Shown one piece after another: positions 6,907 through 32,897 of a stretch of DNA of 32,897 bases. Location: assembly GCA_038750375.1 (NCBI GenBank), contig JBCDHF010000003.1, positions 1 to 32,897 of the forward strand, in the 5' to 3' direction. Both the position numbers and the translations under genes were made by a program. This DNA is from Cyanobacteria bacterium P01_H01_bin.15 (lineage in GTDB: Bacteria; Cyanobacteriota; Cyanobacteriia; Cyanobacteriales; JAAUTE01). Every line of letters starts with the position of its first letter. Positions within the stretch are counted from its first letter, which is position 1. The notes below the pieces were generated by a model. That model was not told where the DNA came from, made no database searches, and was given only the letters and a program-made list of their open reading frames with translations.

Positions 6907-7006
6907 GCCAGCGCTCGCAACTGGAACTAAGATTTGAGGGAAAAGGTCCAGTCTTTGTGGATTGGTTGCTGCCCTCTGTCGGCTTCGGCTGGCGCTACTT
7001 CTGTCA

Positions 7007-10915: not shown

Positions 10916-10918
10916 GGC

Positions 10919-10990
10919 ATAAACCCCATTAAATTATTAGCCTGACTTATCTCAATACGAGTACGACTGGGCTAAGTTTTAGGAGTTTAT
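10919..10990 (+). terminator. Imperfect stem-loop after smc (possible terminator)
   Basis: TTAGCCTG (10937-10944) pairs with TGGGCTAA (10968-10975) and is followed by GTTTT. Outer arms ATAAACCCC (10919-10927) and GGAGTTTAT (10982-10990) pair with one mismatch. Confidence 0.35.
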
Positions 10991-11255
10991 TGGCTGGGAA
11001 CTCGGGCTTGTGATCGCAGATTGAGCAATCATCGGTTTCCCAAACTGATTCACGCTTTTCAACGTTTACTTACAGCTAGCGTTGACCTCCAGGTTCTGTA
11101 GTTATAATCTATGGCGAATATCCGAGAGTAATTACTCACCTTACGGATACTGTTTATTTCGTCAGCTATCGAAACAAAACCTGTTTTTTGGAACGTTTTA
11201 GACTGCTCCAAATCCTCATAAGTAGCATCTTCTCCGGTTTGACTTTGTGCCTGCG

Positions 11256-16284: not shown

Positions 16285-18159
16285 ATGCATCCAGAAACAG
16301 TTGGTGATTCCCTTGCAACTTTGATCGCGGAGGTTAGCGGTCAATACCCCGAACAATTTGCCTTGCTAGCACCGGGCAGAGAGCCTTTAACGTTCAGTCA
16401 GTTACTATTCCATTTGGATAACGTCGCTGAACAGTTGTCTCAATGGGGGATCACGCCCCAGGATCGGGTGGCGGTCTCTTTGCCCAATGGCCCCCAGATG
16501 GCGACTGTATTTTTAGGCGTTGCACGCGTGGCTAGCTGTGCCCCCTTGAATCCCAACTACCGAGAGCCCGAATGCGAGTTTTATTTATCGGATCTCCAGC
16601 CCAAAGCGTTGATTGTTCAGCCCGGGATTGCAGATGCTGCCCGCGCAGTGGCTCTTAAACTCGGAATTGTCGTGTTAGAAATGTCGATTCCGGACAATGG
16701 TCCTGCCGGTGTTTTTGAACTTAAGAGCGACACCCCTTACTCATCGGAGCCGAGCTCGCAGCGGGGCAGCCCCGATGATGTTGCGTTAGTTCTCCATACT
16801 TCGGGCACCACTTCCCGCCCCAAAATGGTGCCCCTTACCCAGCGTAATCTCTGCCGATCTGCCCTCAATATTGCAGACACCTTAAGGCTCACCTCCCAAG
16901 ATCGCTGTCTCAATGTGATGCCTTTGTTTCACATTCACGGGCTGATGGGCTGTTTGCTTTCTTCAATCTCTGCCGGGGCTAGTATTGCCTGTACGCCGGG
17001 ATTCGACGCTGACAGCTTTCGAGACTGGTTAAAAGAGTGCCAACCGACTTGGTTTTCGGCTGTTCCGACCATGCAGCAGGCCGCTCTGACCCAAATTCAG
17101 CAAGGCGGTCTCCCGGATTGCCCACTTCGTTTTGTCCGCTCATCTTCTGCTGCGATGCCTGCCACCGTCTTAGCCGAAATCGAAAAAACCTATGGGGTTC
17201 CTTTAATTGAAGCCTATGGCATGACAGAAGCCTCCCACCAAATGACCAGTAATCCGCTTCCTCCGGCTCCCAGAAAACCCAAATCGGTCGGGGTGGCAGG
17301 GAAAACGCAAGTTGCGATCGCGGCAGCAGATCGTAATGAACTGCTGGCTCAGGGAGAAATCGGAGAGGTTGTCATTTGTGGGGGGGCGGTCACCCAGGGC
17401 TATGTGTCTAATCCGAAGGCTAATGCTACGGCCTTTTTTGAGGACTGGTTTCGAACCGGAGACCAGGGCTATCTCGATGAAGACGGCTATTTATTTTTGC
17501 AGGGACGACTCAAGGAAATCATTAACCGGGGCGGAGAGAAGATCTCGCCGCTGGAAATTGATGAAGCGTTGATGGAATTGCCAGCCGTGCATCAAGCCGT
17601 GGCGTTCGCGATGCCCCATCCCACTTTGGGCGAAGATTTAGCGGCGGCGGTTGTGCTAAAGCCAGACTCAACCACAACCCCGAGAGACTTGCGGGACTAT
17701 CTATTTGAGCGAATTGCTGACTTCAAAGTGCCCAGCCAAATTATTTTGGTCGAGCAAATTCCCAAAGGCGCCACCGGAAAATTACAACGCATTGGTCTAG
17801 CCGAAAAATTATCTTCACAACTTACCGCTGACTTTGTCGCTCCCCTCAATGAGACTGAACAAGCCATTGCCGCCGTTTTCCAAGAAATTCTCGGTTGCGA
17901 TCGCGTGGGAACCACCGAAAATTTTTTTGTGTTGGGTGGAGATTCCTTAAAAGGAACCCAAGTCACCTCCCGGTTGAGCCAACAATACGGAATCGAACTG
18001 CCCAATACCCAACTATTCCACTGTCCCACCGTGGTAGAGCTCGCCCAGGAAATTGAACGTTTGACTCGTGACGATGCTGCGATCGCAGACTTAGCGGACG
18101 AGCTAGCGGGACTCTCTCCCGAAGAACTAGAACAACTGCTGGCAGAAGCCGAGGGCTAA
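16285..18159 (+). CDS. Adenylation-thiolation didomain: oxalate-CoA ligase-like (AAE3/Pcs60-type) A domain fused to a carrier domain and an acidic docking-like tail
   Basis: DDVALVLHTSGTTSRPK, PLFHIHGL, WFSAVPT, LRFVRSSSA, EAYGMTEASHQMTSNPLP, INRGGEKISP and PKGATGKLQR match the oxalyl-CoA synthetase clade as I know it. The carrier motif FFVLGGDSL has its Ser codon at 17944. The tail is IADLADELAGLSPEELEQLL. Confidence 0.85.
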   Translation: MHPETVGDSLATLIAEVSGQYPEQFALLAPGREPLTFSQLLFHLDNVAEQLSQWGITPQDRVAVSLPNGPQMATVFLGVARVASCAPLNPNYREPECEFYLSDLQPKALIVQPGIADAARAVALKLGIVVLEMSIPDNGPAGVFELKSDTPYSSEPSSQRGSPDDVALVLHTSGTTSRPKMVPLTQRNLCRSALNIADTLRLTSQDRCLNVMPLFHIHGLMGCLLSSISAGASIACTPGFDADSFRDWLKECQPTWFSAVPTMQQAALTQIQQGGLPDCPLRFVRSSSAAMPATVLAEIEKTYGVPLIEAYGMTEASHQMTSNPLPPAPRKPKSVGVAGKTQVAIAAADRNELLAQGEIGEVVICGGAVTQGYVSNPKANATAFFEDWFRTGDQGYLDEDGYLFLQGRLKEIINRGGEKISPLEIDEALMELPAVHQAVAFAMPHPTLGEDLAAAVVLKPDSTTTPRDLRDYLFERIADFKVPSQIILVEQIPKGATGKLQRIGLAEKLSSQLTADFVAPLNETEQAIAAVFQEILGCDRVGTTENFFVLGGDSLKGTQVTSRLSQQYGIELPNTQLFHCPTVVELAQEIERLTRDDAAIADLADELAGLSPEELEQLLAEAEG

Positions 18160-18162
18160 GAC

Positions 18163-19908
18163 ATGACAGAGCCTGCAGATAGTCTTCTTCCGCAGTCACA
18201 ATCAGCTTCCTCGGACTCCCTTATCCGAAAATTGGAGCAGTTGACCCCTGCTCAGCGTCGACAACTCCGTCAAAAACTTGGGCAGCGATCGTTGAATGGC
18301 AACGACTTAATCGCCAAAGTGCTTAGTGCTCTAGGTATTACCCATGTCTATGGCATTTCGGGAGTGCCGGTTCATCAGTTACTGGGTCAATGTGCCCGAG
18401 CTGGTATTCGCGTAGTTTGTGGTCGTCACCAACAGGGAGCCACACTAATGGCTGCGAGCCATAATTACGCTGCTGGTAAGTTAGTCGCAGCCGTAATTGT
18501 GTCTTCGGGACCCGCGATTACCAACACAACCACGGGAGTCCTCGTTGCTTGGGATAATGCTTGGCCACTTTTAGTGATCGGTGGTGGTCGAGGCGATGGA
18601 CCGCCTGGCATGTTTCAAGCCCTTGATACTCAACCGATATTCACGCCAATCACAAAAGCCGTCTTTCATCTCTGCTCTGCTCAGGAGATTATTTCAACGC
18701 TGAGCAGAGCCGCTGATCTCGCCATCAGCGATCGCCCCGGACCCGTGTATATTGAGCTGGATCAATCAGTACTAACCCAAACCGCAAGCTTAACTGCCGA
18801 CCTTTCTCCACCCCGTCCGTCCTTCCCCTCATTCGAGCCAACTGCGATTGCCCAGGCTGCAGCCTTACTACAACAAGCCGAGCGCCCCTTATTAGTCTTT
18901 GGTAAAGGCGTGCGCTGGTCAGAGCCTTATGTCGAACTTGCTCAGCTAACCGGTTTAGGAATACCGTTTGTTGCCTCACCGATGGGACAGGGCTATTTGC
19001 CTGATGATGATTCAGCGAATGTTACCCCAGCGGGTTCTTTGGCTCTATCAACGGCGGACGTCGTTTTAAGTGTGGGAGCCCGTTGGAACTGGACTTTTCG
19101 CTTTGGGGCAGAGTTGGCTGAGAATGCCCAATTAATTCAAATTGATGTTCACGAGCCAGAATTGGGTTTGAATGTAAAACCCGCTGTGGGAATTGTGGGC
19201 GATGCGCAAGCGATTTTACAAGCCTTACTAATGAAATTGGGTTCCACTAGTTGGCAGTCAAAGTCTGGAACCGCAGCCTGGCGAGCGCAGCTCGCTACTG
19301 CGTCTCAAGAAAAACAGCAATATTGGCGATCGCGTATTGACCCGACTCAATTGCCCCTGAATTTGCAGACCATGTATGATGCCATTCTGCCTTTGCTGCC
19401 CCGGGACGCAATTACGGTCTTAGAGGGCAACTTCACCTTGGAAGCCGGACTCAGACTAGTGCCCTGTTACCGTCCAGCGAGTCGCTTTACGAATGGAAGT
19501 AATGGGTGTGTGGGAGTAGGGCTACCCTTTGCCATTGGGGCGAAAATCGCCAATCCTGATCGGCTTGTAATTGCTGTTAGCGGAGATTTATCCTTTGGAA
19601 TGACGGCGTTGGAACTGGAAACAGCAGTCAGATACCAGGTTCCCATCGTAATACTGGTTGCCAATAATCAAGGCTTTTGTGGATCTCTCTATCAACATCA
19701 GAACTATGGCATTGATTATCCCGAACGAGTCACGATGTTTGTCCCCAACGCCCAGTATGAAGTGCTCGCCACGGCATTTGGCGGATTCGGTGCAACTGTG
19801 CAAACGGCCTCAGAATTAACCGCCGCCATAACAGACGCAATTGCGGCAAATGTCCCGGCTTGCATTAACGTGCAAATTGACCCCACTGCACCCAACCCTC
19901 GCCATTAA
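18163..19908 (+). CDS. ThDP-dependent enzyme, oxalyl-CoA decarboxylase / 2-hydroxyacyl-CoA lyase-like, with an N-terminal docking-like extension
   Basis: GITHVYGISGVPV, SSGPAITN, WPLLVIGG, RPGPVYIEL, PLLVFGKG, SPMGQG, ADVVLSVGARWNW and the ThDP motif GDLSFG...ELETAVRY...NNQG. It reads RHQQ where the family has RHEQ/RNEQ. It starts 3 nt after the A-T gene stop. Confidence 0.85.
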   Translation: MTEPADSLLPQSQSASSDSLIRKLEQLTPAQRRQLRQKLGQRSLNGNDLIAKVLSALGITHVYGISGVPVHQLLGQCARAGIRVVCGRHQQGATLMAASHNYAAGKLVAAVIVSSGPAITNTTTGVLVAWDNAWPLLVIGGGRGDGPPGMFQALDTQPIFTPITKAVFHLCSAQEIISTLSRAADLAISDRPGPVYIELDQSVLTQTASLTADLSPPRPSFPSFEPTAIAQAAALLQQAERPLLVFGKGVRWSEPYVELAQLTGLGIPFVASPMGQGYLPDDDSANVTPAGSLALSTADVVLSVGARWNWTFRFGAELAENAQLIQIDVHEPELGLNVKPAVGIVGDAQAILQALLMKLGSTSWQSKSGTAAWRAQLATASQEKQQYWRSRIDPTQLPLNLQTMYDAILPLLPRDAITVLEGNFTLEAGLRLVPCYRPASRFTNGSNGCVGVGLPFAIGAKIANPDRLVIAVSGDLSFGMTALELETAVRYQVPIVILVANNQGFCGSLYQHQNYGIDYPERVTMFVPNAQYEVLATAFGGFGATVQTASELTAAITDAIAANVPACINVQIDPTAPNPRH

Positions 19909-19945
19909 CTTGGTTTGGCTACGCATATGTGCAGCAGCAATTATC

Positions 19946-21475
19946 ATGTCTGATTCGCCACTCTCTCGTAAACTCGCCAATCTCTCGCCAGTACAGTTAG
20001 CAAAATTGCGATCGCGGCTGAAGGCTAAACCGTCCGAGATTCAGCCTCGGTCGCAAGTCACCGACTTTCCCGATGACTTAAAACGTTCACTTAATGGTTT
20101 CGATGCTTGGAAGGCCACCCCTAATCAATCCCTGCTGTGGTTTTTAGATCAAAGTCTGGGATCTAATGCAGTCTATAACGTAGTGCGTTCAGTTCGTCTA
20201 TACGGTCCTTTAAATATTCCGGCGTTTCAACAGGCATTACATACGATAGTTCAACGCCACGAAGCTTTAAGGACGAATTTTCAGAGTATTGACCGCGTTC
20301 CTTATCAAATTATCGACAACAACAGCGATCGTTTCAAGGTGCCAGTCGTTGATTTGCGTTCAGTCGATCTAGCTCAAAAGGAATATGCATTACAAAAACA
20401 ATTTCGAGAACTTGGTCAGAAGCCATTTAATCTAGCTCAGGATTTGCTCATTCGCGTCACCATTATTCAACTCGATAATGACCGGTTCGGACTGTCGTTC
20501 TCCTTGCATCATATCATTTGCGATGGCTGGTCCCTGGGTGTTTTATCTAAAGAGCTCTCTACCTTATATCAGGCCTACTGCAACGGCCAAACTTCACCTT
20601 TGTCTCTACCTAAACTGCAATATGCAGATTATGGTCTCTGGCTGCAAACTGGGTTAAAGAAAGAATCACAGGAGCAAGCACGTCGCTATTGGCAGGAAAA
20701 ATTAGCAGGCGAATTGCCCATTCTAGAACTGCCTTGTGATCGCCCTAGAAAAAACGAGCAAACTTACAGTGGTCGCTTAACGACATTTGTTTTTGAGTCC
20801 GCATTATTCAACAGTCTTAAACAACTCGCTAATGAAACTGGAACGTCTTTATTTATGGTTTTATTGGCAAGTCTAAAAGTCTTGTTACATTGCTACACCC
20901 AACAGACTGATATTATCATTGGCTCGCCTATTGCCAACCGCAGCCGTCCTGAAATTGAGGGGACCATTGGCTTTTTTGTTGATTATTTGCCATTACGCAC
21001 CGATTTATCTAACAATCCATCATTTATTGAGCTGTTGACCCGGATACGCCAAACAACTCTAGACGCCTATACTCACGCCTATCCCTTTGCCAAGGTTCTC
21101 AGATTGCTAGAAGTAAAGCACGATCGCATCCGACCCCCTGTTTTCTCTGTGATGATGACGATGCAAAATGTTCCTTCCCCTGATTTAGAGTTAGACAGCG
21201 TAAAGCTATCCGGTTATCGGTCGACAGATAAACCGCCCATGTCTCGAACGTCAATTGTTGGCTATGAATTTCGCACCGATATTGAAGCAGCCCGGTTCGA
21301 CTGGACTATTTTGCTTAAAGAGAATCAAGGAGAGCTATCGGCCGTGTTTGAAGCAAATCGAGATCTGTTTGAACCAGAAACAATTCAACGAATCATCGAT
21401 TATTGGCAAACTATACTAGCGGCGATCGTCGCGAACCCTGACTACGCAATCGCAGAATTTTGCTCACCAAGTTAA
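19946..21475 (+). CDS. Stand-alone NRPS condensation domain protein
   Basis: ATG at 19946 (MSDSPLSRKLANLSPVQLAKLRSRL). Contains RHEALRTNF, intact HHIICDGWS, LQYADY, IGSPIANR and IGFFV, with no A or T domain. Confidence 0.9.
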   Translation: MSDSPLSRKLANLSPVQLAKLRSRLKAKPSEIQPRSQVTDFPDDLKRSLNGFDAWKATPNQSLLWFLDQSLGSNAVYNVVRSVRLYGPLNIPAFQQALHTIVQRHEALRTNFQSIDRVPYQIIDNNSDRFKVPVVDLRSVDLAQKEYALQKQFRELGQKPFNLAQDLLIRVTIIQLDNDRFGLSFSLHHIICDGWSLGVLSKELSTLYQAYCNGQTSPLSLPKLQYADYGLWLQTGLKKESQEQARRYWQEKLAGELPILELPCDRPRKNEQTYSGRLTTFVFESALFNSLKQLANETGTSLFMVLLASLKVLLHCYTQQTDIIIGSPIANRSRPEIEGTIGFFVDYLPLRTDLSNNPSFIELLTRIRQTTLDAYTHAYPFAKVLRLLEVKHDRIRPPVFSVMMTMQNVPSPDLELDSVKLSGYRSTDKPPMSRTSIVGYEFRTDIEAARFDWTILLKENQGELSAVFEANRDLFEPETIQRIIDYWQTILAAIVANPDYAIAEFCSPS

Positions 21476-21525
21476 GCCGTTTCTAGAGAAAGATTTACTA
21501 AAATTTATACCCAATCCTCCAAGTT

Positions 21526-24500
21526 ATGACATCTATAAACGATCGCCTCTCTAAACTCAGCCCAGCTCAGCGCCAACTGCTGACCCAAAAATTGCGGCAG
21601 AAACAGAGTCAGATTGCGCCACGCCCTGCTGAACAAAGCGCCTCTCTATCGTTAGCCCAGCAACGTCTGTGGCTACTCAATCGATTAGAGCCTGACAGTG
21701 CTGCCTACAATTTCCCTTGCTTTTTGTCATTCCAGGGCGACCTCAAAATCGACATTTTGGAACGCGCCCTGAACGAGATTATCCGTCGTCATGAGGTTTT
21801 GCGATCATGTTTTCCGGAAGTTGAGGGTCAACCCACTGTTGAAATAGCCACTGAACTCATACTCACGCTCCAACGCATGGATCTAAGCCAGCTAGCCGAG
21901 GCTGAACAACAACAAAGATTTCAGCAGCTGGCCCATCAAGAAGCCCAAGCTCCATTTGATATTACACAAGGACCCTTAATCCGTGCCAAGCTACTTTATC
22001 GTGGCCCACAGAACCATATCTTACTGCTGACGTTACATCATATTGTCTTTGATGCATGGTCTAGAGGGATTTTTAATCGCGAATTACAAGCTCTATATAC
22101 AGCCTTTGCCGAGAACAACCCATCGCCGCTTGCGGATTTACCTATTCAATACGCAGACTTTGCCTACTGGCAGCAGCAATGGTTGACGAACCAGAGAGTT
22201 CAGACCCAGTTAGGATACTGGCGTCAGAAACTAGCAAATATCCCCGCAGTATTGGAACTGCCTAACGATCGAGCACAGACAGCGACAAAATCGGATAGAG
22301 AGAAACATTTATTCTGGACGCTGGAGGCAGAGGAGACAAAGCGGCTTCAATCTTTTAGTAAAGAGCAAGGATGTACTGTCTTCATGACGTTGCTTGCCGC
22401 CTTCAAGATTTTATTGGCACGGTTATCGGGTCAGACCGATATTTTTGTGGGGATACCGGTAGCTGGGAGAACGCGCTTGGAAGTAGAACCATTACTGGGC
22501 TTCTTTGTTAATACTCTTGTATTGCGTAGTGACCTAGCATCAACACAAACGTTTACTCAACTGCTTGCTCAAGTTCGCGAAACTACTTTGACTGCCCAGG
22601 AAAATCAAGATGTTCCCTTTGAAAAGGTGATTGAGGAATTAAATCCAGAGCGAATTCTAAATCGCAAGCCCCTCTGTCAAATTTGGTTCAACATGGTAAG
22701 CCTCGCCGAAGAAAGGCCTTCGATCAAGGATCTTGAAGTAAAATCACTCCCGTTTAGACCTCCCAATTCTAAATTTGACTTAGGCGTTTATATAAGACAG
22801 CCCCAAACAAACTATCAAATTGATTTCGCCTACAGTGCTAACCTATTTAGCAAAGAGCGCATCGAAATATTGCTCGGGCAATATAAACAATTGCTGATGC
22901 AAGTCATCGAGCAGCCAGAAACTGCGATCGCAAACTACTCACTAGCCACACCCGGGCTGATAGCACAGTCGATTCTGCCAGATCCTAAACTCGCGCTAGT
23001 TGAGGAGCCTTTTGAGCCCGTAACTAAGCTGCTTACAACCTGGGCAGATCGTCATCCCGATTCCGTTGCGATTAGTCAAGGAGAGCAGAAGTGGTCTTAT
23101 CGGGAGCTGCGAGAAAAATCCTATCAATGTGCGCAAACGCTAATTGTCAATGGAATGAAGCCGGGAGATACGGTGGCAGTTTCCGGCGATCGTAGTTTTG
23201 GTCTGATTGTTGCAATGTGGGGCATTTTATTCAGTGGTGGCGTCCTACTTACTCTCGATCCGACCTTACCTCAGAAACGCAAAGAGAGAATGCTCGCGCT
23301 AAGTGAAGCGAAGTATATTTTGTACGTTGGCAATTTGCTTCCTGAGGATAACTGGCTAGAAAAGCAATCAGAATTACTTCATCTCAGCGCCCTAACGGGG
23401 GACATTAAAGATGACAAATTACTGACTGATACTGATGCTTCGCTTTCATTACCCGAACTGCAGCGTTCAGCGTATATCTTTTTTACCTCTGGGACCACGG
23501 GCACTCCCAAAGGAATTTTAGGAACGCATCAAGGTCTAGCCCATTTCTTATACTGGCAACGCCATACTTTTTCAGTCCAGCCGGGCGATCGGGTTGCCCA
23601 ATTAACAGGGCTCTCGTTTGATGTGGTTCTGCGGGAAATATTTCTGCCTTTGAGCAGCGGGGCAAGGCTGTGTCTTCCCCCTGCTTCAGCGGATTTGTCT
23701 CCAGTATCGATTTTGCCGTGGTTAGATCAGCAGCAAATTTCGATCCTTCACATTGTCCCTTCTCTAGCCCAAGTCTGGATCAACGATCTTCCAGAGCAAA
23801 ATTCTCTATCTAACTTGCGCTGTTTATTCTTTGCCGGAGAACCATTATTCGATAAATTAGTACTTCAATGGCGTCATTGCTTATCAAACAGTTGTCGAAT
23901 CATCAATCTTTACGGTCCAACTGAAACGACGCTTGCTAAATGTTATTTTGAAATCCCGAAAACGCCGCCTACAGGCGTACAGCCAGTTGGGACCTCCCTA
24001 CCCGGGAGCCAGGCGTTAGTTTTAGCAGATCATCAGCGTCTATGCGGCGTAGGGGAACCGGGCGAAATTGTGATCCGAACACCATACCGAACAGCTGGGT
24101 ATCTCAAAAATCCAGAAGAAAATACACGTCGATTTGTCCCTAATTCAGCTCGTGAGGATGAGAACGATCTGTTGTACTTCACTGGCGATAGCGGACGATA
24201 TCGCCCTGACGGGCAACTAGAGATCTTGGGTCGCTTAGATAATCAAATCAAAATCAGAGGCGTTCGGGTTGAATTAGGAGAAATTAGCAGTCTTTTAGAA
24301 GCAATAGAGGAGATCAAAAATCAGTTTGTAATGGTTCGGGAAGACACGCCAGATGACAAAAAAATTGTGGCATACGTGGTTCCTGCACCCGGCAAAACAA
24401 TTGAGACGTACAAACTTCGAGAACGGCTCAGATTACATCTTCCTCAATATATGATGCCCAGTGCATTTGTAATGCTACCCGTGCTTCCCCTCACTCCCAA

Positions 24501-27500
24501 TGGGAAAGTGGATCATCAAGCTCTTCCTGCACCAGAACCAGTCATCGATATCTCTGAATTTATTACGCCAGAGACTCCTACAGAAAAAACTCTCAGCAGG
24601 ATTTGGGAAGAGGTTCTGAATACAGAGCAGGTTAGCGCAACAGCTGATTTCTTTGAGCTAGGAGGCCATTCTTTACTTGCCGTGAAACTGATCTCACGAA
24701 TTCGGCAGCAGCTAGATTGTGAGATTCCTATTCGTGAGCTATTCGCTTGTTTAACTATAAGAAATCTTGCCAAGTACATTCACTCCAGATCAACTTCTTC
24801 TCCCGTTAAAAAACGCCTCTCTCAATTAAGTCCAAAACAGCATCAATTACTCGCTAAAAAACTAGAGCAGAGAAAAAATCAAATCTCCACTCAATCCAGA
24901 GATCCGGAAGCCCCCCTTCCTTTATCTCTGGCTCAACAGCGGCTATGGTTCATTGATGAATTAGAAGGTCAAAGTCCCCTTTACAATCTTTCTTTGATCC
25001 TGGAATTTGAAGGCGCGGTCAATCCAACTTTTCTGGAACAAAGTTTGCGCATCATTATCCAACGGCATAAAATTCTGCGCGCTCAAATCACCGCAGATGA
25101 CGGAATCCCTTGCCTAGCTTTTCGCGACGAGAGCACTTGGAAGTTTAACACCCTCGATTTTAGCCACATTCCGTCAGAAGACAGAGAAGCTCACGTTCAT
25201 CAAGCCCTGAAAGCAGAGCTGATGAGCCCCTTTGCTCTTAATCAGGATTGGCTAATTCGAGCCGCCCTACTCCAAAAGGATACAGAAAAATCAACGTTGG
25301 TAATTGTGACCCATCACATCGTTTCCGATGGCTGGTCTACTGGAATTTTACGCACCGAGTTATCAGCGCTTTATGAAGCATATGTTCAGAATCAAGAACC
25401 GTCTCTACCCCCGCTACCAATTCAATATGCCGACTATAGCATTTGGCAACGGCAGCAATTTGAAACAGATTACTTAAAACCCCATACTGATTATTGGCGG
25501 TTGCAACTAACAGGAACGCCTCCTCTCATAGAACTGCCCCTGGACCGCCCGCGCCCTGCAATTCTTTCCTATCGTGGACAGCATTTGCGTTCAGTCCTAA
25601 GTGCCGAACAAGCGTCAAAACTCACGAAGCTTGGTCAACAGCGGGGAATGACTCTATTTATGGTGCTGTTAGCCGCATTTCAGACTCTGTTATTTCGCTA
25701 TTCCGGACAGCCGGACATTGTTGTTGGAACCCCGATCGCTAACCGTAATCGGACAGAGATTGAATCGTTAATCGGTTTCTTTGCCAATACTCTTGTGCTC
25801 AGAAGCCAATTCGAGTCAGCCCAATCCTTTGAAGACCTTTTGTTCAAAGTTAAGGAAACTACCCTCAACGCATACGCTTACCAAGATTTTCCGTTTGAGC
25901 AAGTCGTAGAAATCCTTCAACCACAGAGGAATTTGAGCTACTCGCCTGTTTTCCAGGTGATGTTCGCGCTGCAAAATTTGCCGCCCGTCACTGAGACGCT
26001 AGGCGATATTACCTGGCAACGAATATCAGTCTCAACTGAAACCGCTAAGTTCGACTTAGGACTTTTCGTGCGAGAAGCTGCATCAGGGCTTAACTTAACT
26101 TGGGAATATAATACTGACCTGTTTGATATGGCAACTATCGAACGTATGGCTCAGCATTTTTCAGTGTTGCTCGACGGCGTTATTGCTAACCCAGCTAGAG
26201 AGATCGCTTGTTTACCCATCTTGACTGACCCAGAACGTTCTCACTTGCTGGTTGAATTGAACAATACAGCAACAGATTATCCACGGGATAAGTGCCTCCA
26301 TGAGCTGTTTGAAGAGCAAGCCAGAAAGACACCAAATACGATCGCGATCGAGGATCACAACCAATCCATAACCTATCAGGAGCTGGATCAGCAGGCTGAA
26401 CAATTGGCTGCTTATCTGGGCTCAAAAGGAATTGCGGTCGAGTCAACGGTTGGTCTGTTTCTGGATCGATCCCTGTCAATGATAATTGCCGTTCTTGCGA
26501 TCCTAAAAGCGGGGGCGGCGTATGTGCCATTAGATTTAAACTATCCGGCCGCTAGAATTGAATATATGTTGTCCAATTCCGAGGCGAGTCAGGTTCTGAC
26601 AACCCGCTCACTGTCTGGTCGGCTACCCGCCTCAATCACAACGATCTGTATTGATCAACCGCTTACTGCTCCCATCGCTCACACCCAAAGCGCACAGGCA
26701 AGTCCAGATAACTTAGCTTATCTTATCTATACGTCTGGTTCAACGGGGAAACCCAAAGGCGTTGCAATGACTCATAAGACTTTAGTCAATCTCATTCAAT
26801 GGCAATGTGATCAGTCAGAATCCCAACAACGAACTCTCCAATTTTCGCCCATTAGTTTTGATGTGTCCTGTCAAGAAATATTCTCTACTTGGGCATCCGG
26901 CGGAACTCTCGTCTTAATTACAGAAGAAACCCGTCAAGATTTTGGCGCTTTCTTTGATTATTTGACCCATCAGAAAATTAATCGACTCTTTTTGCCCTTT
27001 GTCGCACTTCAAGGACTTGCTGAAATTGGTCAAAATCGCGATTTTCCTGGCTCTTTGCAGGAAGTGATCACGGCGGGTGAAGCGCTTAAGATTAGTCCTG
27101 CGATCGCAAAATTTTTCGAGAAAGGGTCTAGCTGTCGTTTGCAAAATCAGTATGGCCCTTCAGAAACGCATGTAGCCATCGCTTTTTCGTTAACTGGAGC
27201 ACCAGACACTTGGGCAACATTTCCGCCCATTGGCCAGCCTATCGCCAATGCCCTTGTTTACTTGCTGGATGGCATGCATCAAATTGTTCCGATTGGCATT
27301 CCTGGTGAAATATATATTGGTGGAACTGCGATCGCACGAGGCTATCACAACCTACCGGAGCAAACTGAAGCTAAGTTCATTGATAACCCATTTGGGCCAG
27401 GGCGTCTGTACAAAACGGGAGATTTAGGACGGTACCGAACCGATGGTGCAATCGACTACCTTGGTCGGTCCGATCGCCAAGTCAAAATACGAGGATTCCG

Positions 27501-29031
27501 CATTGAACTTGGTGAAGTTGAAGCGCAGTTAAATGCCATGCCCGAGATCAAGACAGCCATTGCGGTGGTTCGAGAGGATCAAACAGGGGATAAGCGCTTA
27601 ATCGCTTATGGCATACCCAAACAAAGGGAAACAATCGATATAAGGATGTTAAAAGCCTATTTGTCAGATAAGCTGCCAGACTACATGATTCCAGTTGCCA
27701 TTGTTTGTCTAGACAAATTTCCAGTAACACCCAGCGGCAAAATAGATCGCAAAGCTCTTCCCACACAAGAATTTCAAACAGATGATATTGCTGTCGCCCC
27801 ACGGGACCCGTTAGAACGACAGCTCGTCGACATTTGGCAACGCATTTTGGGGCTCCAATCAATCGGCATCCAAGATGACTTTTTCGAGCTGGGAGGACAC
27901 TCACTATTAGCGGTAAAACTCTTCTCAGAGATTGAGAAAACCTGTAATGAAAAGTTACCCCTCGCAACCCTATTTCAGGCTCGTAATATCGCAGAACTGG
28001 CGACTTACATCCGCGAGCGCCGCTTTGAAGAACATTCTTGCTTGATTCAGATGCAGACTATGGGCGAGCGCCCGCCTTTATTTTTCCTACCGCCTGCGGG
28101 GGGACATATGCTCGTATATGAGCGTTTAGCAAATAATCTCGGGCCCGATCAACCTATGTATGGTCTGGAATTCCAGGCTTCTGCCAATGACGATGCTCAG
28201 GGCAGTTCAATCAAAAATACGGTCAGCGAATTTATTCGCGCCATGCGCCAGGTGCAACCCAATGGACCCTATCATTTAATCGGACTTTCTTTTGGTGGAC
28301 TCCTCGCTTGGGCTGTTGCTGAAGAATTACAACGCCAGGGAGAACCTTTAGCAACCATTATTCTCCTGGATTGTGCAGCTCCTGGCACGACGAAACGCTT
28401 AACAGGTTTTCCTCGCTTTATTGCGGTGGCTTCTTGGGTGATATATGAACGAGTGCGTCACTTCTGGCGTATTTGTAGAGATGATGTCAAAAAGCGACTT
28501 CATTCAAAAAAACTCAATTTAGAATCTAGAAAACCCACCTCATCCTCTGTCCAAACAAAAGATCAAGTTCAACAACACAAGTTACAACAGCAAGTCCAAG
28601 ACATCGTAGAAAGTCTAAAAAGTGCTCATGGAGGAAATTGGCAAAAGTGGTTGGACTATTGGGGAGCGAGACTAGTGACCCTGACCGAATCGAAGTATTT
28701 GGTCAAACCGATTTATGGAGGACAGCATTATCTAGATGATATCCGTGACTTCCTTGATGATAGGACTTTAGAGGTTTTACAAACGAAGTATAACTTATTA
28801 AAAAGGTATCAACCGGGACCCTTATCCTGTCCAGTCCTGGTATTTCGAGCAACAGAGCGGATCCCGAGCTTAAAGACCAGTTTTACAATGGGTTGGGAAC
28901 CATTTGTTCAGAAAGAACTGAAAGTCATTCCAATTCATGGAGGTCACCATACTATTGTGACCTCGACCAAGTTAGCAACGCAGTTAGCTCGCTATCTTGA
29001 TATTATTCATCAAAATCAATCAAGCAAATAG
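21526..29031 (+). CDS. Two-module NRPS, C-A-T-C-A-T-TE
   Basis: C1 HHIVFDAWS; A1 FTSGTTGTPKG and YGPTE; T1 GGHSL (about 24661); C2 HHIVSDGWS; A2 YTSGSTGKPKG with a proline-like pocket; T2 GGHSL (about 27892); TE GLSFGG (28282) and a C-terminal His (GGHH). Confidence 0.96.
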   Translation: MTSINDRLSKLSPAQRQLLTQKLRQKQSQIAPRPAEQSASLSLAQQRLWLLNRLEPDSAAYNFPCFLSFQGDLKIDILERALNEIIRRHEVLRSCFPEVEGQPTVEIATELILTLQRMDLSQLAEAEQQQRFQQLAHQEAQAPFDITQGPLIRAKLLYRGPQNHILLLTLHHIVFDAWSRGIFNRELQALYTAFAENNPSPLADLPIQYADFAYWQQQWLTNQRVQTQLGYWRQKLANIPAVLELPNDRAQTATKSDREKHLFWTLEAEETKRLQSFSKEQGCTVFMTLLAAFKILLARLSGQTDIFVGIPVAGRTRLEVEPLLGFFVNTLVLRSDLASTQTFTQLLAQVRETTLTAQENQDVPFEKVIEELNPERILNRKPLCQIWFNMVSLAEERPSIKDLEVKSLPFRPPNSKFDLGVYIRQPQTNYQIDFAYSANLFSKERIEILLGQYKQLLMQVIEQPETAIANYSLATPGLIAQSILPDPKLALVEEPFEPVTKLLTTWADRHPDSVAISQGEQKWSYRELREKSYQCAQTLIVNGMKPGDTVAVSGDRSFGLIVAMWGILFSGGVLLTLDPTLPQKRKERMLALSEAKYILYVGNLLPEDNWLEKQSELLHLSALTGDIKDDKLLTDTDASLSLPELQRSAYIFFTSGTTGTPKGILGTHQGLAHFLYWQRHTFSVQPGDRVAQLTGLSFDVVLREIFLPLSSGARLCLPPASADLSPVSILPWLDQQQISILHIVPSLAQVWINDLPEQNSLSNLRCLFFAGEPLFDKLVLQWRHCLSNSCRIINLYGPTETTLAKCYFEIPKTPPTGVQPVGTSLPGSQALVLADHQRLCGVGEPGEIVIRTPYRTAGYLKNPEENTRRFVPNSAREDENDLLYFTGDSGRYRPDGQLEILGRLDNQIKIRGVRVELGEISSLLEAIEEIKNQFVMVREDTPDDKKIVAYVVPAPGKTIETYKLRERLRLHLPQYMMPSAFVMLPVLPLTPNGKVDHQALPAPEPVIDISEFITPETPTEKTLSRIWEEVLNTEQVSATADFFELGGHSLLAVKLISRIRQQLDCEIPIRELFACLTIRNLAKYIHSRSTSSPVKKRLSQLSPKQHQLLAKKLEQRKNQISTQSRDPEAPLPLSLAQQRLWFIDELEGQSPLYNLSLILEFEGAVNPTFLEQSLRIIIQRHKILRAQITADDGIPCLAFRDESTWKFNTLDFSHIPSEDREAHVHQALKAELMSPFALNQDWLIRAALLQKDTEKSTLVIVTHHIVSDGWSTGILRTELSALYEAYVQNQEPSLPPLPIQYADYSIWQRQQFETDYLKPHTDYWRLQLTGTPPLIELPLDRPRPAILSYRGQHLRSVLSAEQASKLTKLGQQRGMTLFMVLLAAFQTLLFRYSGQPDIVVGTPIANRNRTEIESLIGFFANTLVLRSQFESAQSFEDLLFKVKETTLNAYAYQDFPFEQVVEILQPQRNLSYSPVFQVMFALQNLPPVTETLGDITWQRISVSTETAKFDLGLFVREAASGLNLTWEYNTDLFDMATIERMAQHFSVLLDGVIANPAREIACLPILTDPERSHLLVELNNTATDYPRDKCLHELFEEQARKTPNTIAIEDHNQSITYQELDQQAEQLAAYLGSKGIAVESTVGLFLDRSLSMIIAVLAILKAGAAYVPLDLNYPAARIEYMLSNSEASQVLTTRSLSGRLPASITTICIDQPLTAPIAHTQSAQASPDNLAYLIYTSGSTGKPKGVAMTHKTLVNLIQWQCDQSESQQRTLQFSPISFDVSCQEIFSTWASGGTLVLITEETRQDFGAFFDYLTHQKINRLFLPFVALQGLAEIGQNRDFPGSLQEVITAGEALKISPAIAKFFEKGSSCRLQNQYGPSETHVAIAFSLTGAPDTWATFPPIGQPIANALVYLLDGMHQIVPIGIPGEIYIGGTAIARGYHNLPEQTEAKFIDNPFGPGRLYKTGDLGRYRTDGAIDYLGRSDRQVKIRGFRIELGEVEAQLNAMPEIKTAIAVVREDQTGDKRLIAYGIPKQRETIDIRMLKAYLSDKLPDYMIPVAIVCLDKFPVTPSGKIDRKALPTQEFQTDDIAVAPRDPLERQLVDIWQRILGLQSIGIQDDFFELGGHSLLAVKLFSEIEKTCNEKLPLATLFQARNIAELATYIRERRFEEHSCLIQMQTMGERPPLFFLPPAGGHMLVYERLANNLGPDQPMYGLEFQASANDDAQGSSIKNTVSEFIRAMRQVQPNGPYHLIGLSFGGLLAWAVAEELQRQGEPLATIILLDCAAPGTTKRLTGFPRFIAVASWVIYERVRHFWRICRDDVKKRLHSKKLNLESRKPTSSSVQTKDQVQQHKLQQQVQDIVESLKSAHGGNWQKWLDYWGARLVTLTESKYLVKPIYGGQHYLDDIRDFLDDRTLEVLQTKYNLLKRYQPGPLSCPVLVFRATERIPSLKTSFTMGWEPFVQKELKVIPIHGGHHTIVTSTKLATQLARYLDIIHQNQSSK
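21715..21749 (+). repeat. 35-bp exact direct repeat shared by the 5' C-domain regions of the two NRPS genes (second copy 30372-30406)
   Basis: CCTTGCTTTTTGTCATTCCAGGGCGACCTCAAAAT occurs at both positions, inside a longer region of high similarity. Confidence 0.9.
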
Positions 29032-29334
29032 ATATATTTGATTCCTTTCTGCGATGACTAGGGGGTGGTCAATATTCAAGTTGAGACATTGTGCGATCGA
29101 GGGAGGTTCGCTAGTGGATAACCTCTTTAATTGTGACACTTTGTTTATTTAGGTGATTTGCTTGATGAATAAGTTTAGGGAATTAAATCCGCCTATCAAA
29201 TTCACCGTGGCTGCCACTAGGCATTAAAAGCGCTTTTTTGATCAGAATCAACGCCGTAATTTTACTTGTTCTGCACTGACTTTAGGACAGGATGTCCGAC
29301 AATAGTGACGAAAACTAAATCTCAATCAGAGGCT

Positions 29335-30180
29335 ATGCTTAAGCACTCCGGCGATCGGCTTCGCTCACTTCTGGGTTCAGCGGAAACCATTCCGTTTATG
29401 GGCGTTTATGATGCCTTTTCTGCGGCGATCGCCGGGAGATACTATCAGAACCTATTTGTTAGCGGTGATGGCTTCGGGGTTAGCTACTATAGCTTACCTG
29501 ATATTGGGTTTATTGCCTGGGTAGATATGGTGAACTTCGTAAAGCAGCTCTGAACAATTCTCCCAGAGCACCTCTCTCTTATTGGTTGATATTGATGATG
29601 AATATGTTGATGTGCAGACAGCTTGCCATGTTGTTCGCCGACTAGAACAACTTTGCGCTGCGGGTGGAATTCTCGAAGATCACCCCCCCCCTGGCGATGC
29701 TGCCATGCCGATGGTAAGCAGTTACTCGATAGTGATAGCTACTTGGAAAAACTTGCTGAGGTCCTAGCAGCTAGGGAGCGTCTCTTCGTCCTGGCTCGTA
29801 CTAATGCCACAGATCCAACGGAAATTATTGAGCGGAGCAAGCGTTATGCGAATGCTGGAGCAGATGCAGTGCTGGCTGATGGCATTACTGATTTAGCTAT
29901 TCTTAAAACCTTGTAGAGCGAAGTCTCAGTTCCCATCGTTTTTAATCAAATCGCGGGCGGGAAATCGCCTACCTGCAACCTGACAGAGCTTAGTAATATC
30001 GGGGTCTCCCTCGTGAACTACAGCACCCCATGTTTGTTCGCGGTCCAAGATGCTATTGCGACAGAAATGGAACGACTTTCTTGGGCAGATGGTAAGTTGG
30101 GGGAGCGAGGCTGGTCCGATTGTAACCCAGTCCTTCAAGAGTCTCTAGAAAAGATCACGCATTCACGATCACGCGATTAA
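29335..30180 (+). pseudogene. Disrupted isocitrate lyase/PEP mutase superfamily gene, lyase branch (methylisocitrate lyase / oxaloacetate acetylhydrolase-like)
   Basis: Pieces in three frames join to GVYDAFSA...LPDIG...VDIDDEY...LEDHxxxWRCCHADGK...ARTNA...GADAV...FNQIAGGKSP. Lesions are TGA at 29551-29553, a frameshift in the CT run near 29572-29581, a frameshift in the C9 run at 29683-29691 and TAG at 29914-29916. The natural stop TAA is at 30178-30180. Confidence 0.85.
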
Positions 30181-30182
30181 TC

Positions 30183-32897
30183 ATGGCTTCTCTAAACGAT
30201 CGCCTTTCTCAACTCAGCCCAGAACAACGTCAACTGCTGGCAAAAAAACTGCGACAGAAGCAGAGTCACATTTCGCCAAGACCCGCTGGACAAAAGACCA
30301 TCCTTTCCTTTGCCCAACAAAGAATGTGGTTGTTATATCGACTAGATCCTGATAGTGAAGCCTATAATTTTCCTTGCTTTTTGTCATTCCAGGGCGACCT
30401 CAAAATTAAAGTTTTGGAGCGCGTCCTGAACGAAATTGTTCGTCGTCACGAGATTTTGCGATCGCGCTTCCCTGAAGTCAATGGGGAACCCACTGTAAAA
30501 ATTATTGATGATTTCAAGTTGACCTTAGAGCCAATTAGTCTTGAAAATCTAGACCGAGCCGAGCAGCAGTCTCGTGTTCAACAGTTAGCTAGTCAAGAAG
30601 CAAAAAATCCCTTTGACATCACGCAAGATGCTCTAATTCGAGGAAAAATTTTAACTCTTGATGATCATCAATACGTTTTGCTACTAACCCTTCATCACAT
30701 TATTTTCGATGGCTGGTCCGAGGGGGTATTTAAACAAGAGTTAGAGAGCCTATATGACGCATTTTCTCAAGGCAAACCATCTCCTTTACCGGAATTATCG
30801 ATACAGTATGCAGACTTCGCCCACTGGGAGCGGCAATGGTTAACGACCGAACGTGCTCAAACTCAACTTGACTATTGGAGTCAGAAATTAGCAGGCATGT
30901 CGCCCTTACTTGAGCTGCCCACAGATCGTCCGCGTCCGGCTATTCAAACTGACAAAGGCGATCGCGTTTTTTGGACTCTAGGTAAGTCAACTACAGAGAA
31001 TTTGCGAGAGCTCAGTCAAAAACAAGACTGCACATTATTTATGACATTGATGGCAGCCTTCCAGATATTGTTATTTCGATATTCTGGACAAGAGGATATT
31101 GCCGTTGGTACGCCTATTGCCAGTCGAATAAGACCCGAGATTGAGGGAATAATTGGTTATTTTGCTAATACCTTGATATTGCGAGAGACATTATCTGATG
31201 AGATGGCGTTTAATGACCTAGTACAACAAATAAAAGAAACAGCACTAGCCGCCTATAATCATCAGGATATTCCATTTGATCGACTAGTACAAAAACTTCA
31301 ACCTACGCGAAATACTAGTTTTTCACCCTTGTTTCAAGTGGTTTTCGCGCTGCGGCCTAATAATTTTACCAGCGACACACGTTGGCAACAGCTTTCCTTA
31401 AACCCAAATACAGCAAAGTTTGATCTTGAAGTTAATCTCCGGGAAGATGATGAGGAGCTAACGGGTTACTGGGAATATAATACAGACTTGTTCAATCGCG
31501 ACACCATTGAACGAATGTGCAAACATTTTACAGTTTTACTGGCTGGAATTTTAAAAAATCCAGCCATGTCGATTTCCCTGTTGCCATTGCTGACGAATGC
31601 AGAACGACATCAATTATTGATCGAGTGGAACAATACTGCTACGGACTATCCTAAGGATAAATGTATTCATGAACTTTTTGGGGAGCAAGTTTCAAAAACG
31701 CCTGATGTGATCGCGGTAAGCTACGACAAACAATCGCTGTCCTACTGTGAACTTAATCAGGAAGCCAATCAACTAGCTCAATATTTACAATCGATACATG
31801 CACAAGCAAACTCACGAATTGGGATTTGCCTGGAGCGCTCAAACAGTGCCATCGTAGCGATTTTAGGTGTACTTAAAGTTGGTTGTCTTTATGTCCCACT
31901 AGATCCTCACTATCCTACTGAGCGCTTGCAGTTCATGGTTGATGATGCTCAAATATCGATCATTCTATCTAATTCCCAAACTCAGTATGCGATTGATAAG
32001 CTTTCTATCAACACCAGTATTACTTCGATTGTGAAGATTGATCGTGTTGTGTATTCCGAGTCACAAGAGAGTCTTAGCCTTGCTGTAAAATCTCACCAAG
32101 GAGCATATATTAACTATACGTCTGGCTCTACCGGTGTCCCCAAAGGCGTCCTTGTCCCTCATCGTGGGGTTATCCGTCTCGTTCGCAATACAAATTATAT
32201 TGATATTCGGCGAGGCGATCGCGTCGGACAAGCGGCAACGCTAGCTTTTGATATGGCAACCTTAGAAATTTGGGGTGCTTTATTAAACGGAGGATCCATT
32301 ATTGGTATTCCGAAAGAGACCCTGCTCGACCCCTGGGCATTAGCCCACACGATTCAAAGAGAACATATTAATGTATTGGTTGTCCCAACTGCCGTATTGC
32401 ACAAAATAGCAGAAACTGATTCAACAATCTTTTCTACTTTAAAGTGCTTAGTATTCGGTGGTGAAGCGGCGTCTCCCCACTGGATCAAACGAATTCTGAA
32501 ACATGGTGCACCCCAAAGCTTAGTGAATGGTTACGGACCTACGGAGAATACTGCCATCAGCTCTGCTTATGTTGTTGCTGAGATAGCTGAAAATGCAACG
32601 ACTGTCTTGATCGGCAAACCAATTAGCAATAGTCGTTGCTATGTGCTTGATAAAAATCGTGAGTTAGTCCCTATTGGGGTTCCTGGCGAACTATATGTAG
32701 CTGGAGATGGGCTCGCAAATGGTTATTTATTCCGTCCACAAGCCTCCGCAGAAAAGTTTATCCTCCATGAGTGGGAAAAAGGAAATGTTGAGCGGCTCTA
32801 TCGTACGGGTGATTTAGTCCGATATCACGCAGACGGCAATTTAGAGTTTGTTGGACGGCAAGATTCTCAAGTTAAAATTAGAGGTTTTCGTATTGAA
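30183..32897 (+). CDS. Second NRPS (C-A...), 3'-truncated by the window edge
   Basis: Not in the ORF track because no stop falls in the window. ATG at 30183 gives MASLNDRLSQLSPEQRQLLAKKLRQK, followed by HHIIFDGWS, YTSGSTGVPKG, NGYGPTE and YRTGD, and stays in frame to QVKIRGFRIE at 32897. Confidence 0.95.
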   Translation, partial: MASLNDRLSQLSPEQRQLLAKKLRQKQSHISPRPAGQKTILSFAQQRMWLLYRLDPDSEAYNFPCFLSFQGDLKIKVLERVLNEIVRRHEILRSRFPEVNGEPTVKIIDDFKLTLEPISLENLDRAEQQSRVQQLASQEAKNPFDITQDALIRGKILTLDDHQYVLLLTLHHIIFDGWSEGVFKQELESLYDAFSQGKPSPLPELSIQYADFAHWERQWLTTERAQTQLDYWSQKLAGMSPLLELPTDRPRPAIQTDKGDRVFWTLGKSTTENLRELSQKQDCTLFMTLMAAFQILLFRYSGQEDIAVGTPIASRIRPEIEGIIGYFANTLILRETLSDEMAFNDLVQQIKETALAAYNHQDIPFDRLVQKLQPTRNTSFSPLFQVVFALRPNNFTSDTRWQQLSLNPNTAKFDLEVNLREDDEELTGYWEYNTDLFNRDTIERMCKHFTVLLAGILKNPAMSISLLPLLTNAERHQLLIEWNNTATDYPKDKCIHELFGEQVSKTPDVIAVSYDKQSLSYCELNQEANQLAQYLQSIHAQANSRIGICLERSNSAIVAILGVLKVGCLYVPLDPHYPTERLQFMVDDAQISIILSNSQTQYAIDKLSINTSITSIVKIDRVVYSESQESLSLAVKSHQGAYINYTSGSTGVPKGVLVPHRGVIRLVRNTNYIDIRRGDRVGQAATLAFDMATLEIWGALLNGGSIIGIPKETLLDPWALAHTIQREHINVLVVPTAVLHKIAETDSTIFSTLKCLVFGGEAASPHWIKRILKHGAPQSLVNGYGPTENTAISSAYVVAEIAENATTVLIGKPISNSRCYVLDKNRELVPIGVPGELYVAGDGLANGYLFRPQASAEKFILHEWEKGNVERLYRTGDLVRYHADGNLEFVGRQDSQVKIRGFRIE

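Follow-up and report, generated by a model that had tools for sequence, protein, structure and literature searches.

A candidate NRPS initiation cassette in a cyanobacterial contig that may carry oxalate and ThDP chemistry on a carrier domain

The nonribosomal peptide synthetase (NRPS) cluster described here occupies positions 16285-32897 of a 32,897-nucleotide (nt) stretch of DNA from Cyanobacteria bacterium P01_H01_bin.15 (assembly GCA_038750375.1, contig JBCDHF010000003.1), referred to below as the window. The window is the entire contig C3 of a 4.68 Mb bin made up of 615 contigs and 93.6% complete. Open reading frame (ORF) calls and Pfam searches place six features in the cluster, all on the + strand (Table 1): a fusion of an AAE3-like adenylation (A) domain with a thiolation (T) carrier domain, a thiamine diphosphate (ThDP) enzyme related to oxalyl-CoA decarboxylase (OXC) and 2-hydroxyacyl-CoA lyase (HACL), a stand-alone condensation (C) domain, a first NRPS (NRPS1), the pseudogene of a lyase from the isocitrate lyase (ICL)/PEP-mutase superfamily, and a second NRPS (NRPS2) that is cut by the contig end. 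The intergenic gaps measure 3, 37, 50 and 35 nt. The ThDP gene starts 3 nt past the stop of the A-T gene, and the ORF of the stand-alone C domain, although open from 19841, likely begins at an ATG 37 nt past the ThDP stop. A first-pass annotation made from the sequence alone had described six co-directional genes with short gaps, and the ORFs and domains were confirmed at the places it gave. It had also proposed that a catabolic oxalate route was moved from coenzyme A (CoA) onto a carrier protein. The reading that we favor, at a probability of roughly 0.55, is that the cluster holds an NRPS initiation cassette in which CoA-dependent oxalate or 2-hydroxyacyl activation and the accompanying ThDP chemistry may have been transferred to a carrier domain.

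The pairing of the A-T protein with the ThDP enzyme recurs well outside the window. A homologue search of a set of 5.8 billion proteins returned more than 120 matches of 42-65% identity from many phyla. Related loci were collected, 5 from species-representative genomes and 80 from metagenomes, and all of their ORFs were translated. An alignment of 85 ThDP ORFs with E. coli Oxc sorts them by the residue at the position of the canonical cofactor-activating Glu: leaving aside the window's own, 55 have Gln, 17 have Glu and 12 lack the N terminus. Neighbors were scored where at least 600 nt of flank was available. An A-T ORF was counted if co-directional and at least 40% identical, a C domain if no more than 2.5 kb away. 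An AAE3-like A-T ORF stands upstream of every Gln-type ThDP ORF with sufficient upstream sequence (44/44), and a C domain lies downstream of 34 of the 39 with sufficient downstream sequence. No Glu-type relative has either neighbor (0/17). The five Gln-type ORFs without a nearby C domain are L022, where another A-T stands before the C domain, L054, where an ABC transporter comes next, and L050, L052 and L053. The first-pass annotation had allowed that homologous genes might not be co-conserved with NRPSs; on checking, these counts proved otherwise. They overstate the number of independent cases, because many loci are close kin (for example L047/L049/L082 and L050/L053).

Two further arrangements illustrate how compact the association can be. 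One natural single-chain fusion of A-T and ThDP enzyme, the 1153-residue P0123, turned up when longer proteins were searched; it has the same pocket residues, Gln, Phe-Gln pair and short tail as discussed below. Minimal clusters also occur: L030 consists of A-T, ThDP enzyme, ICL-like lyase, a C-A-T-TE protein (TE, thioesterase) and a phosphopantetheinyl transferase (PPTase), and L018 of A-T-TE, A-T, ThDP enzyme and C-A-T-TE. The cassette is rare and patchy in its distribution. None of 400 other genomes of the window's phylum matches at E 1e-100 or better, and in the order of a proteobacterial carrier (G401) there are 3 matching genomes among 401, of which G401 is one and an unpublished genome another; no other count draws on the latter. 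In a plasmid collection the cassette has no match at E 1e-80.

The loading enzyme, P0001, ends in a carrier domain (PP-binding at residues 526-589, about 17860-18051, with a GGDSL phosphopantetheine (Ppant) site) and a tail of 31 residues (about 18064-18156); the long acidic tails of this family have the consensus I..EL..LS.EEA.RLL. In a sequence search of the PDB, the closest solved relatives of its A domain are oxalate-CoA ligases (5ie0, E 2.8e-114; 8aff, 1e-109; 6qjz, 1.2e-109), with malonyl-CoA synthetases, the next family outside the NRPSs, far below at about 5e-60. PMC8905533 gives V215, H216, C288, S289, A313, M314, H319 and K500 as the oxalate pocket of AtAAE3, and describes S289 and H319 as conserved in oxalyl-CoA synthetases only. 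A HMMER alignment puts I, H, S, S, G, M, H and K at these positions in P0001, which thus keeps both residues reported there as specific and changes three of the eight conservatively (V to I, C to S and A to G). Among 49 AAE3-like A-T ORFs from the window and the related loci, S289 is retained in 40 of the 40 that cover the column, as is M314 (40/40); H319 is retained in 39 of 42, with Pro, Asn and a masked residue in the other three. Of 48 sequences, 47 have the Ppant Ser. The earlier description of P0001 as an AAE3/Pcs60-like ligase fused to a carrier is borne out by the Pfam architecture, the PDB matches and the pair S289/H319. Taken as sequence evidence, these features suggest that the A domain would load oxalate on its own T domain. 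In its architecture P0001 departs from a CoA ligase: its A domain is followed by a T domain and a tail of 31 residues, whereas oxalate-CoA ligases are stand-alone proteins of about 510-540 residues.

It could also be imagined that another small acid, such as glyoxylate, glycolate, formate or malonate, is loaded, the ThDP enzyme then serving as a lyase or synthase for the resulting thioester. NCBIfam makes no family call for P0001, and its best matches are generic (FadD7 family, 376 bits with a cut-off of 650; malonyl-CoA synthase, 273 bits). Three of the eight pocket positions of AtAAE3 differ, if conservatively, and the active site of the ThDP enzyme resembles that of HACL and of 2-hydroxyacyl-CoA synthase (HACS), which uses formyl thioesters directly (PMC11271303). 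However, S289 (40/40) and H319 (39/42), both reported as confined to oxalyl-CoA synthetases, speak for oxalate, and the malonyl-CoA synthetases match much more weakly (E 1e-59 vs 1e-114). We consider a different acid very improbable, the least probable of the readings weighed here.

Two observations on related A-T proteins may be recorded here. In a Halomicronema locus (L006:4495-7747), a ComA-type phosphosulfolactate synthase, a glyoxalase/VOC protein and a second AAE3-like A-T lie downstream of the C-A-T gene. This second A-T has Pro at the oxalate-specific position H319, which suggests a second, different small-acid unit, possibly a sulfo acid. An apparent split of the A domain in a Halomicronema contig (L008:2316-2330) coincides with masked letters, read as X in translation; a frameshift is not demonstrated.

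The ThDP enzyme, P0002, has the three-domain architecture of the POX/ALS type, with the N, M and C TPP domains of Pfam all over their cut-offs. By sequence, its nearest PDB relatives are HACL/HACS and OXC proteins (8vzj, E 2.4e-84). An AlphaFold2 (AF2) model with a pLDDT of 86.3 has N-terminal helices at residues 15-25 and 29-40, and a Foldseek search with it returns HACL 6xn8 and HACS 8vzk and 8vza on top, with TM scores of 0.85-0.86, followed by MeOXC and EcOXC. All 30 homologues compared share the ThDP motif residues G474, D475, N501 and N502, and many core residues are likewise invariant. The arginines of the ADP site are retained as R191 and R307 and are nearly invariant.

Other features set P0002 apart from both parent families. 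It scores 302.3 bits against a cut-off of 739.4 for the OXC model TIGR03254, 326.3 against 557 for NF006721, and 257.9 against 600 for the HACL model NF058623 (NCBIfam). Where E. coli Oxc has RHEQ, P0002 has RHQQ, placing Gln at the position of the canonical cofactor-activating Glu. The floor of its active site is F151-Q152, the HACL state, vs Tyr-Glu in E. coli Oxc (Tyr133-Glu134 in MeOXC). In PMC7154664, this Phe-Gln vs Tyr-Glu exchange is given as the sole difference in the active-site floor between HACL and OXC, and human HACL, with Phe-Gln, is said to decarboxylate oxalyl-CoA at less than 1 per minute. Features that handle CoA are lost as well. PMC11271303 states that R400 of ApbHACS binds acyl-CoA and names R545, K546, Q548 and W552 as lid residues. 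The position of R400 is Leu in P0002; among the relatives it is Gln in 50, Glu in 4 and gapped in 1 of the 55 Gln-type proteins, and Arg in 11 of the 17 Glu-type proteins. P0002 has no C-terminal lid: it ends 4 residues past the aligned core, with 9 residues after the last core Asp vs 22 in E. coli Oxc. Between 0 and 11 residues follow this Asp in 53 of 55 Gln-type sequences vs 15-32 in 16 of 17 Glu-type sequences.

In a quick maximum-likelihood tree of 70 rows, all 53 Gln-type rows fall on one side of a branch with an SH-aLRT of 98, and their sister is a Glu-type HACL-like ORF. By these sequence criteria the enzyme forms a separate clade in the OXC/HACL family. An assignment of P0002 to OXC was considered and rejected, given the scores under both OXC cut-offs, the Phe-Gln floor, Gln in place of Glu and the absent lid; no ORF of the bin reaches an OXC cut-off. 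The term "oxalyl decarboxylase" used in the first-pass annotation therefore stands in part: membership in the OXC/HACL family of ThDP enzymes agrees with Pfam, PDB and Foldseek, whereas the equation with OXC itself does not hold.

The ThDP enzyme also bears what looks like a docking segment. Its N-terminal extension of about 43 residues (about 18163-18291), modeled as two helices, contains the motif L..L(S/T)P.QR..L at about residues 20-40. The same motif opens the stand-alone C domain, NRPS1 and NRPS2, and is found again in the linker between T1 and C2 of NRPS1. With the segment L..LSP.QR.LL..KL recurring in this way, one A-T tail could dock to several partners in turn. Across the loci, a regular expression (regex) for the extension is positive in 17 of the 26 with an A-T tail of at least 25 residues and in none of the 20 where this tail is shorter. 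By eye, several regex-negative loci with long tails also bear the motif, as does L068, which has a shorter tail. Complex prediction for the ThDP enzyme with the T domain and tail gave scores of 0.12 and 0.05, where 0.32 was the mark, and is used as evidence neither for nor against docking. That the ThDP enzyme is "docked", as first proposed, is in keeping with the motif that its extension shares with the N termini of the C domain and the NRPSs.

From these features a sequence of steps can be proposed. The AAE3-type A domain would adenylate oxalate and transfer it to its own T domain as oxalyl-S-T, as the pocket residues suggest. The ThDP enzyme would then dock to the A-T protein, and its ylide would attack the carbonyl of the tethered thioester; co-conservation, the natural fusion, the docking segment and the loss of CoA-binding features all point this way. 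Loss of CO2 would leave the ThDP-bound one-carbon (C1) carbanion that is common to OXC and HACL. In a third step, the carbanion may be protonated and released as formyl-S-T. This is the single likeliest outcome, if still short of even odds, and parsimony favors it, since no additional substrate is required in a minimal cluster. Close behind it comes the possible addition of the carbanion to a carbonyl acceptor, giving 2-hydroxyacyl-S-T. Gene order and the minimal clusters suggest that an elongation-type C domain would then join the unit to the first amino acid through its amino group. The resulting peptide would bear either an N-formyl cap, made independently of folate, or an N-2-hydroxyacyl one. 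Both outcomes are kept because the active site is HACL-like, with Phe-Gln, and not OXC-like; as P0002, with that floor and with Gln for the canonical Glu, is not an OXC, simple decarboxylation to formyl is not the only outcome to be considered. The earlier proposal that the catabolic route moved from CoA to the carrier is consistent with the linkage counts (44/44 and 34/39), the pocket residues, the loss of CoA features, docking and the fusion; what it cannot keep is the role given to P0002 as an OXC.

The choice between the two outcomes turns on the fate of the carbanion. In decarboxylative carboligation, oxalyl-S-T would serve as an irreversible donor of a C1 nucleophile, and the carbanion would react with an aldehyde or 2-oxo acid to yield a 2-hydroxyacyl-S-T starter (for example glycolyl, lactyl, tartronyl or a 2-hydroxy fatty acyl group), which the C domain would condense with the first amino acid. 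We regard this as a tentative reading. The floor is of the HACL/HACS type in the window (F151-Q152) and in 50 of the 55 Gln-type relatives, and HACL and HACS are the nearest folds. The residues that relay protons in MeOXC, Tyr497 and Ser568, are without counterpart in P0002, where the Tyr loop differs and the lid that bears the Ser is absent. Removal of Tyr497 in MeOXC moved the product ratio about 400-fold towards carboligation, according to PMC7154664. The C domain after the ThDP enzyme is, moreover, of the ordinary elongation type, whose donors have a substituted alpha carbon. Against this, no gene that could supply an acceptor is conserved: the minimal clusters comprise only A-T, ThDP enzyme, an optional ICL-like lyase, C-A-T-TE and PPTase. 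No known product is linked to any of these loci. HACL also protonates the same carbanion when it works in the lyase direction, so that loss of the OXC relay is still compatible with release of formyl. Extended to the family, it is a speculative possibility that the Gln-type, lidless, NRPS-docking clade uses carrier-bound oxalyl as a C1 carbanion donor and builds 2-hydroxyacyl starters from cellular carbonyls.

The proposed cassette, in either form, has several points to answer. Gln takes the place of the canonical Glu in P0002, in all 55 clade members compared and in the natural fusion, and in other ThDP enzymes a change from Glu to Gln lowers activity 100- to 1000-fold. Glyoxylate carboligase, a decarboxylating and carboligating ThDP enzyme, is reportedly an exception, naturally lacking this Glu and having Val in its place (Kaplun et al. 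2008); since it works without Glu, loss of the residue need not be fatal. The likeness goes only so far, as that enzyme acts on free glyoxylate, whereas the cassette enzyme has an invariant Gln on an OXC/HACL scaffold and would act on a carrier thioester. The Phe-Gln pair of P0002 also stands in place of the Tyr-Glu of OXC, and human HACL with the same Phe-Gln turns over oxalyl-CoA less than once per minute (PMC7154664). The post-ThDP C domain is not of a dedicated type: a tree of C domains has 11 label changes vs a mean of 15.8 after shuffling, and nothing therefore suggests that such domains handle an unusual donor. The window's post-ThDP C domain stands without an A-T, and as each NRPS already begins with a C domain, one C is left in surplus. 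Only 6 other loci include an ICL-like gene, whose protein is nearer in a PDB sequence search to petal death protein (PDP), 2,3-dimethylmalate lyase (DMML) and methylisocitrate lyase (MICL) types than to oxaloacetate acetylhydrolase (OAH). Lastly, the subclade of L050, L052 and L053 has the A-T/ThDP pair without any NRPS, and the pair can therefore serve another purpose.

Some of these points would sit more easily with an N-oxalyl peptide, in which oxalyl itself is condensed and the ThDP protein, weakened by the change from Glu to Gln, is an editing, regulatory or structural partner. Every member has lost the canonical Glu, the pocket of the A domain fits oxalate, and the NRPS-free subclade beside a TRAP dicarboxylate transporter hints at an ancestral role in disposal. 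Such a role is hard to reconcile, however, with a ThDP motif and many core residues that are invariant in 30 diverse members, and with a gene that is kept in every locus. The position of the ThDP gene between A-T and C, and the fusion of A-T and ThDP enzyme in P0123, likewise fit a step on the pathway. We consider an N-oxalyl product very improbable as well.

Members of the NRPS-free subclade differ in further respects. L050, L052 and L053 have a Phe-Met floor in place of Phe-Gln and keep the A-T partner, with no NRPS genes nearby. L053 has a TRAP DctM transporter upstream, and galactarate-dehydratase-like and SMP-30 sugar-acid genes downstream. These loci possibly represent a carrier-based oxalate or dicarboxylate pathway that preceded recruitment by NRPSs.

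The stand-alone C domain had been recognized from the start and is a clear Pfam match with an intact HHIICDG motif and an N-terminal docking motif. Its nearest PDB relatives are the elongation-type domains of Txo2 (E 4.8e-74), Txo1 and TycC, and the starter C domain of RzmA (7c1h) matches at E 9.4e-13 only. It is 54% identical to the C domain of the Halomicronema C-A-T protein. A dedicated starter-type (Cs) domain was considered and rejected, as in the tree the C domains that follow a ThDP enzyme are interspersed with elongation C domains. Elsewhere, where the make-up of the protein was checked (for example in L006, L018, L030 and L051), the post-ThDP C domain opens a C-A-T or C-A-T-TE protein.

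A source of oxalate may lie in the ICL-like lyase. The remnant in the window is 49% identical over 280 residues (tblastn, E 4e-87) to an intact gene at L008:219-1061, and carries 6 TGA and 1 TAG codons and a frame-scrambled middle. Its best fragment scores 31.1 against the PEP_mutase cut-off of 31.5, and the L008 gene 123 bits. An assembly artefact is unlikely: Logan contigs of run X1 reproduce 28900-30226 without indels, although this run is probably the source sample and hence not independent. In Halomicronema L008, the intact 280-residue ICL-like gene stands 5' of A-T; genes 57-61% identical to it adjoin the ThDP gene in L030, L047, L049, L051 and L082. The intact homologues bear a lyase-type gating loop, EDQKRPRRCGH, with the K-R-C-G-H kind of motif. 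Their best PDB matches are carboxyvinyl-carboxyphosphonate phosphorylmutase (as annotated; 1.3e-31) and PDP (2.1e-30), then DMML and methylisocitrate lyases, with the OAH 3lye as the 11th match (E 7.9e-23). PDP has oxaloacetate acetylhydrolase activity. It is plausible that the ICL-like lyase supplies oxalate and, where present, it would most simply make it from oxaloacetate; the copy in the window is dead and the bin has an intact paralogue. That copy lies on contig C132 (2636 nt; L102:1-2636), which holds the end of a TE, an intact ICL-like gene of 290 residues (279-1151) and the first part of an NRPS C domain, with 73% DNA identity to window positions 28889-31360. C132 is either a second, paralogous cluster or the contig of a related organism binned together. 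The "relic oxalate-producing lyase" of the first-pass annotation is indeed decayed in the window; the intact paralogue in the bin, and PDB matches nearer to PDP, DMML and MICL than to OAH, qualify the rest of that description.

The cassette can be compared with several known systems. The pair formed by AAE3/Pcs60/oxalyl-CoA synthetase (OCS) and OXC uses the same two enzyme families in the same order, and has in common with the cassette the oxalate pocket and the ThDP fold and motif. That pair uses free CoA, whereas the cassette has a fused carrier domain. OXC has Tyr-Glu, the canonical Glu, an acyl-CoA-binding Arg and a lid; the ThDP enzyme of the cassette has none of these four and fails both OXC cut-offs. 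The E. coli oxalate genes stand beside frc or a transporter, and the cassette inside NRPS clusters. HACL and HACS are nearest in fold and sequence and share the Phe-Gln floor and ADP-site arginines. They have the catalytic Glu, R400 and a lid, whereas the cassette enzyme has Gln, no counterpart of R400 or the lid, a docking extension and a constant A-T partner. N-formylation in NRPSs is known from F domains such as that of LgrA, which formylate aminoacyl-S-T with formyl-tetrahydrofolate (formyl-THF). The kind of product, an N-formyl peptide, would be the same, yet no formyltransferase (F) domain was found by Pfam in the NRPSs of the window. The lactacystin starter module (LctF, and AT1-ACP1 of LctA) likewise presents a carrier-bound formyl thioester as the starter of an assembly line. 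There, according to PMC11730586, 10-formyl-THF yields formyl-CoA, which is AT-loaded and KS-used, whereas in the cassette an oxalate-type A domain and a ThDP enzyme would feed a C domain and a formyltransferase is absent. The first-pass annotation knew of no characterized cluster with this layout, and our search agrees: the full-text literature searched, whose scope left out most subscription journals and supplements, contains no description of an AAE3-like A-T together with an OXC/HACL-like enzyme in an NRPS.

The surroundings of the cluster complete the description (Table 1). A HlyD-family membrane-fusion protein and an RND transporter are encoded upstream in the same direction and are possible export partners of the cluster. 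There is a step in G+C content within the cluster, from 0.527 for A-T and 0.514 for the ThDP gene to 0.442 for C, 0.460 for NRPS1 and 0.429 for NRPS2, consistent with separate origins of the synthetases and the A-T/ThDP pair. Over an SMC gene at window positions 7000-11000, AT skew is strongly positive (0.17-0.25), which is unrelated to the cassette.

Table 1. Features of the NRPS cluster and its transporter neighbors in the window.
Feature	Position	Strand	Basis and remarks
HlyD-family membrane-fusion protein	11247..12671	+	Pfam HlyD_3, HlyD_D23; co-directional with the cluster
RND (AcrB-type) transporter	12747..16067	+	Pfam ACR_tran, 1066 bits; ends 217 nt 5' of the A-T gene
AAE3-like A-T fusion with C-terminal docking tail (624 aa, P0001)	16285..18159	+	Pfam AMP-binding, AMP-binding_C, PP-binding
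ThDP enzyme, OXC/HACL family, Gln-type lidless clade (581 aa, P0002)	18163..19908	+	Pfam TPP_enzyme N/M/C
Stand-alone condensation domain	19946..21475	+	Pfam Condensation, 341 bits; HHIICDG
NRPS1, C-A-T-C-A-T-TE (2501 aa)	21526..29031	+	Pfam and sequence; 50 nt gap before
ICL/PEP-mutase-superfamily lyase pseudogene	29335..30147	+	tblastn; fragment matches to prpB and PEP_mutase models
NRPS2, C-A..., cut by contig end	30183..32897	+	Pfam Condensation, AMP-binding
L..LSP.QR.LL..KL segment	18163-18291, 19946-20050, 21526-21610, ~24750-24830, 30183-30270		Sequence

If the proposed reading is true, the cassette would be a new route of NRPS priming, either by a folate-independent formyl cap or by decarboxylative one-carbon elongation on a carrier. 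Should carboligation be the outcome, it would be a natural one-carbon "umpolung" elongation, a reaction so far found only in engineered OXC/HACS pathways. An AAE3-like A-T beside a Gln-type lidless OXC/HACL homologue can be used as a signature for genome mining; in this sample it split 55 NRPS-linked enzymes from 17 ordinary relatives without error. The Gln-type clade is also a naturally occurring test of what the canonical glutamate contributes to ThDP catalysis. If the reading holds, these proteins would further provide ready-made, carrier-dependent versions of enzymes that are being engineered for C1 assimilation.

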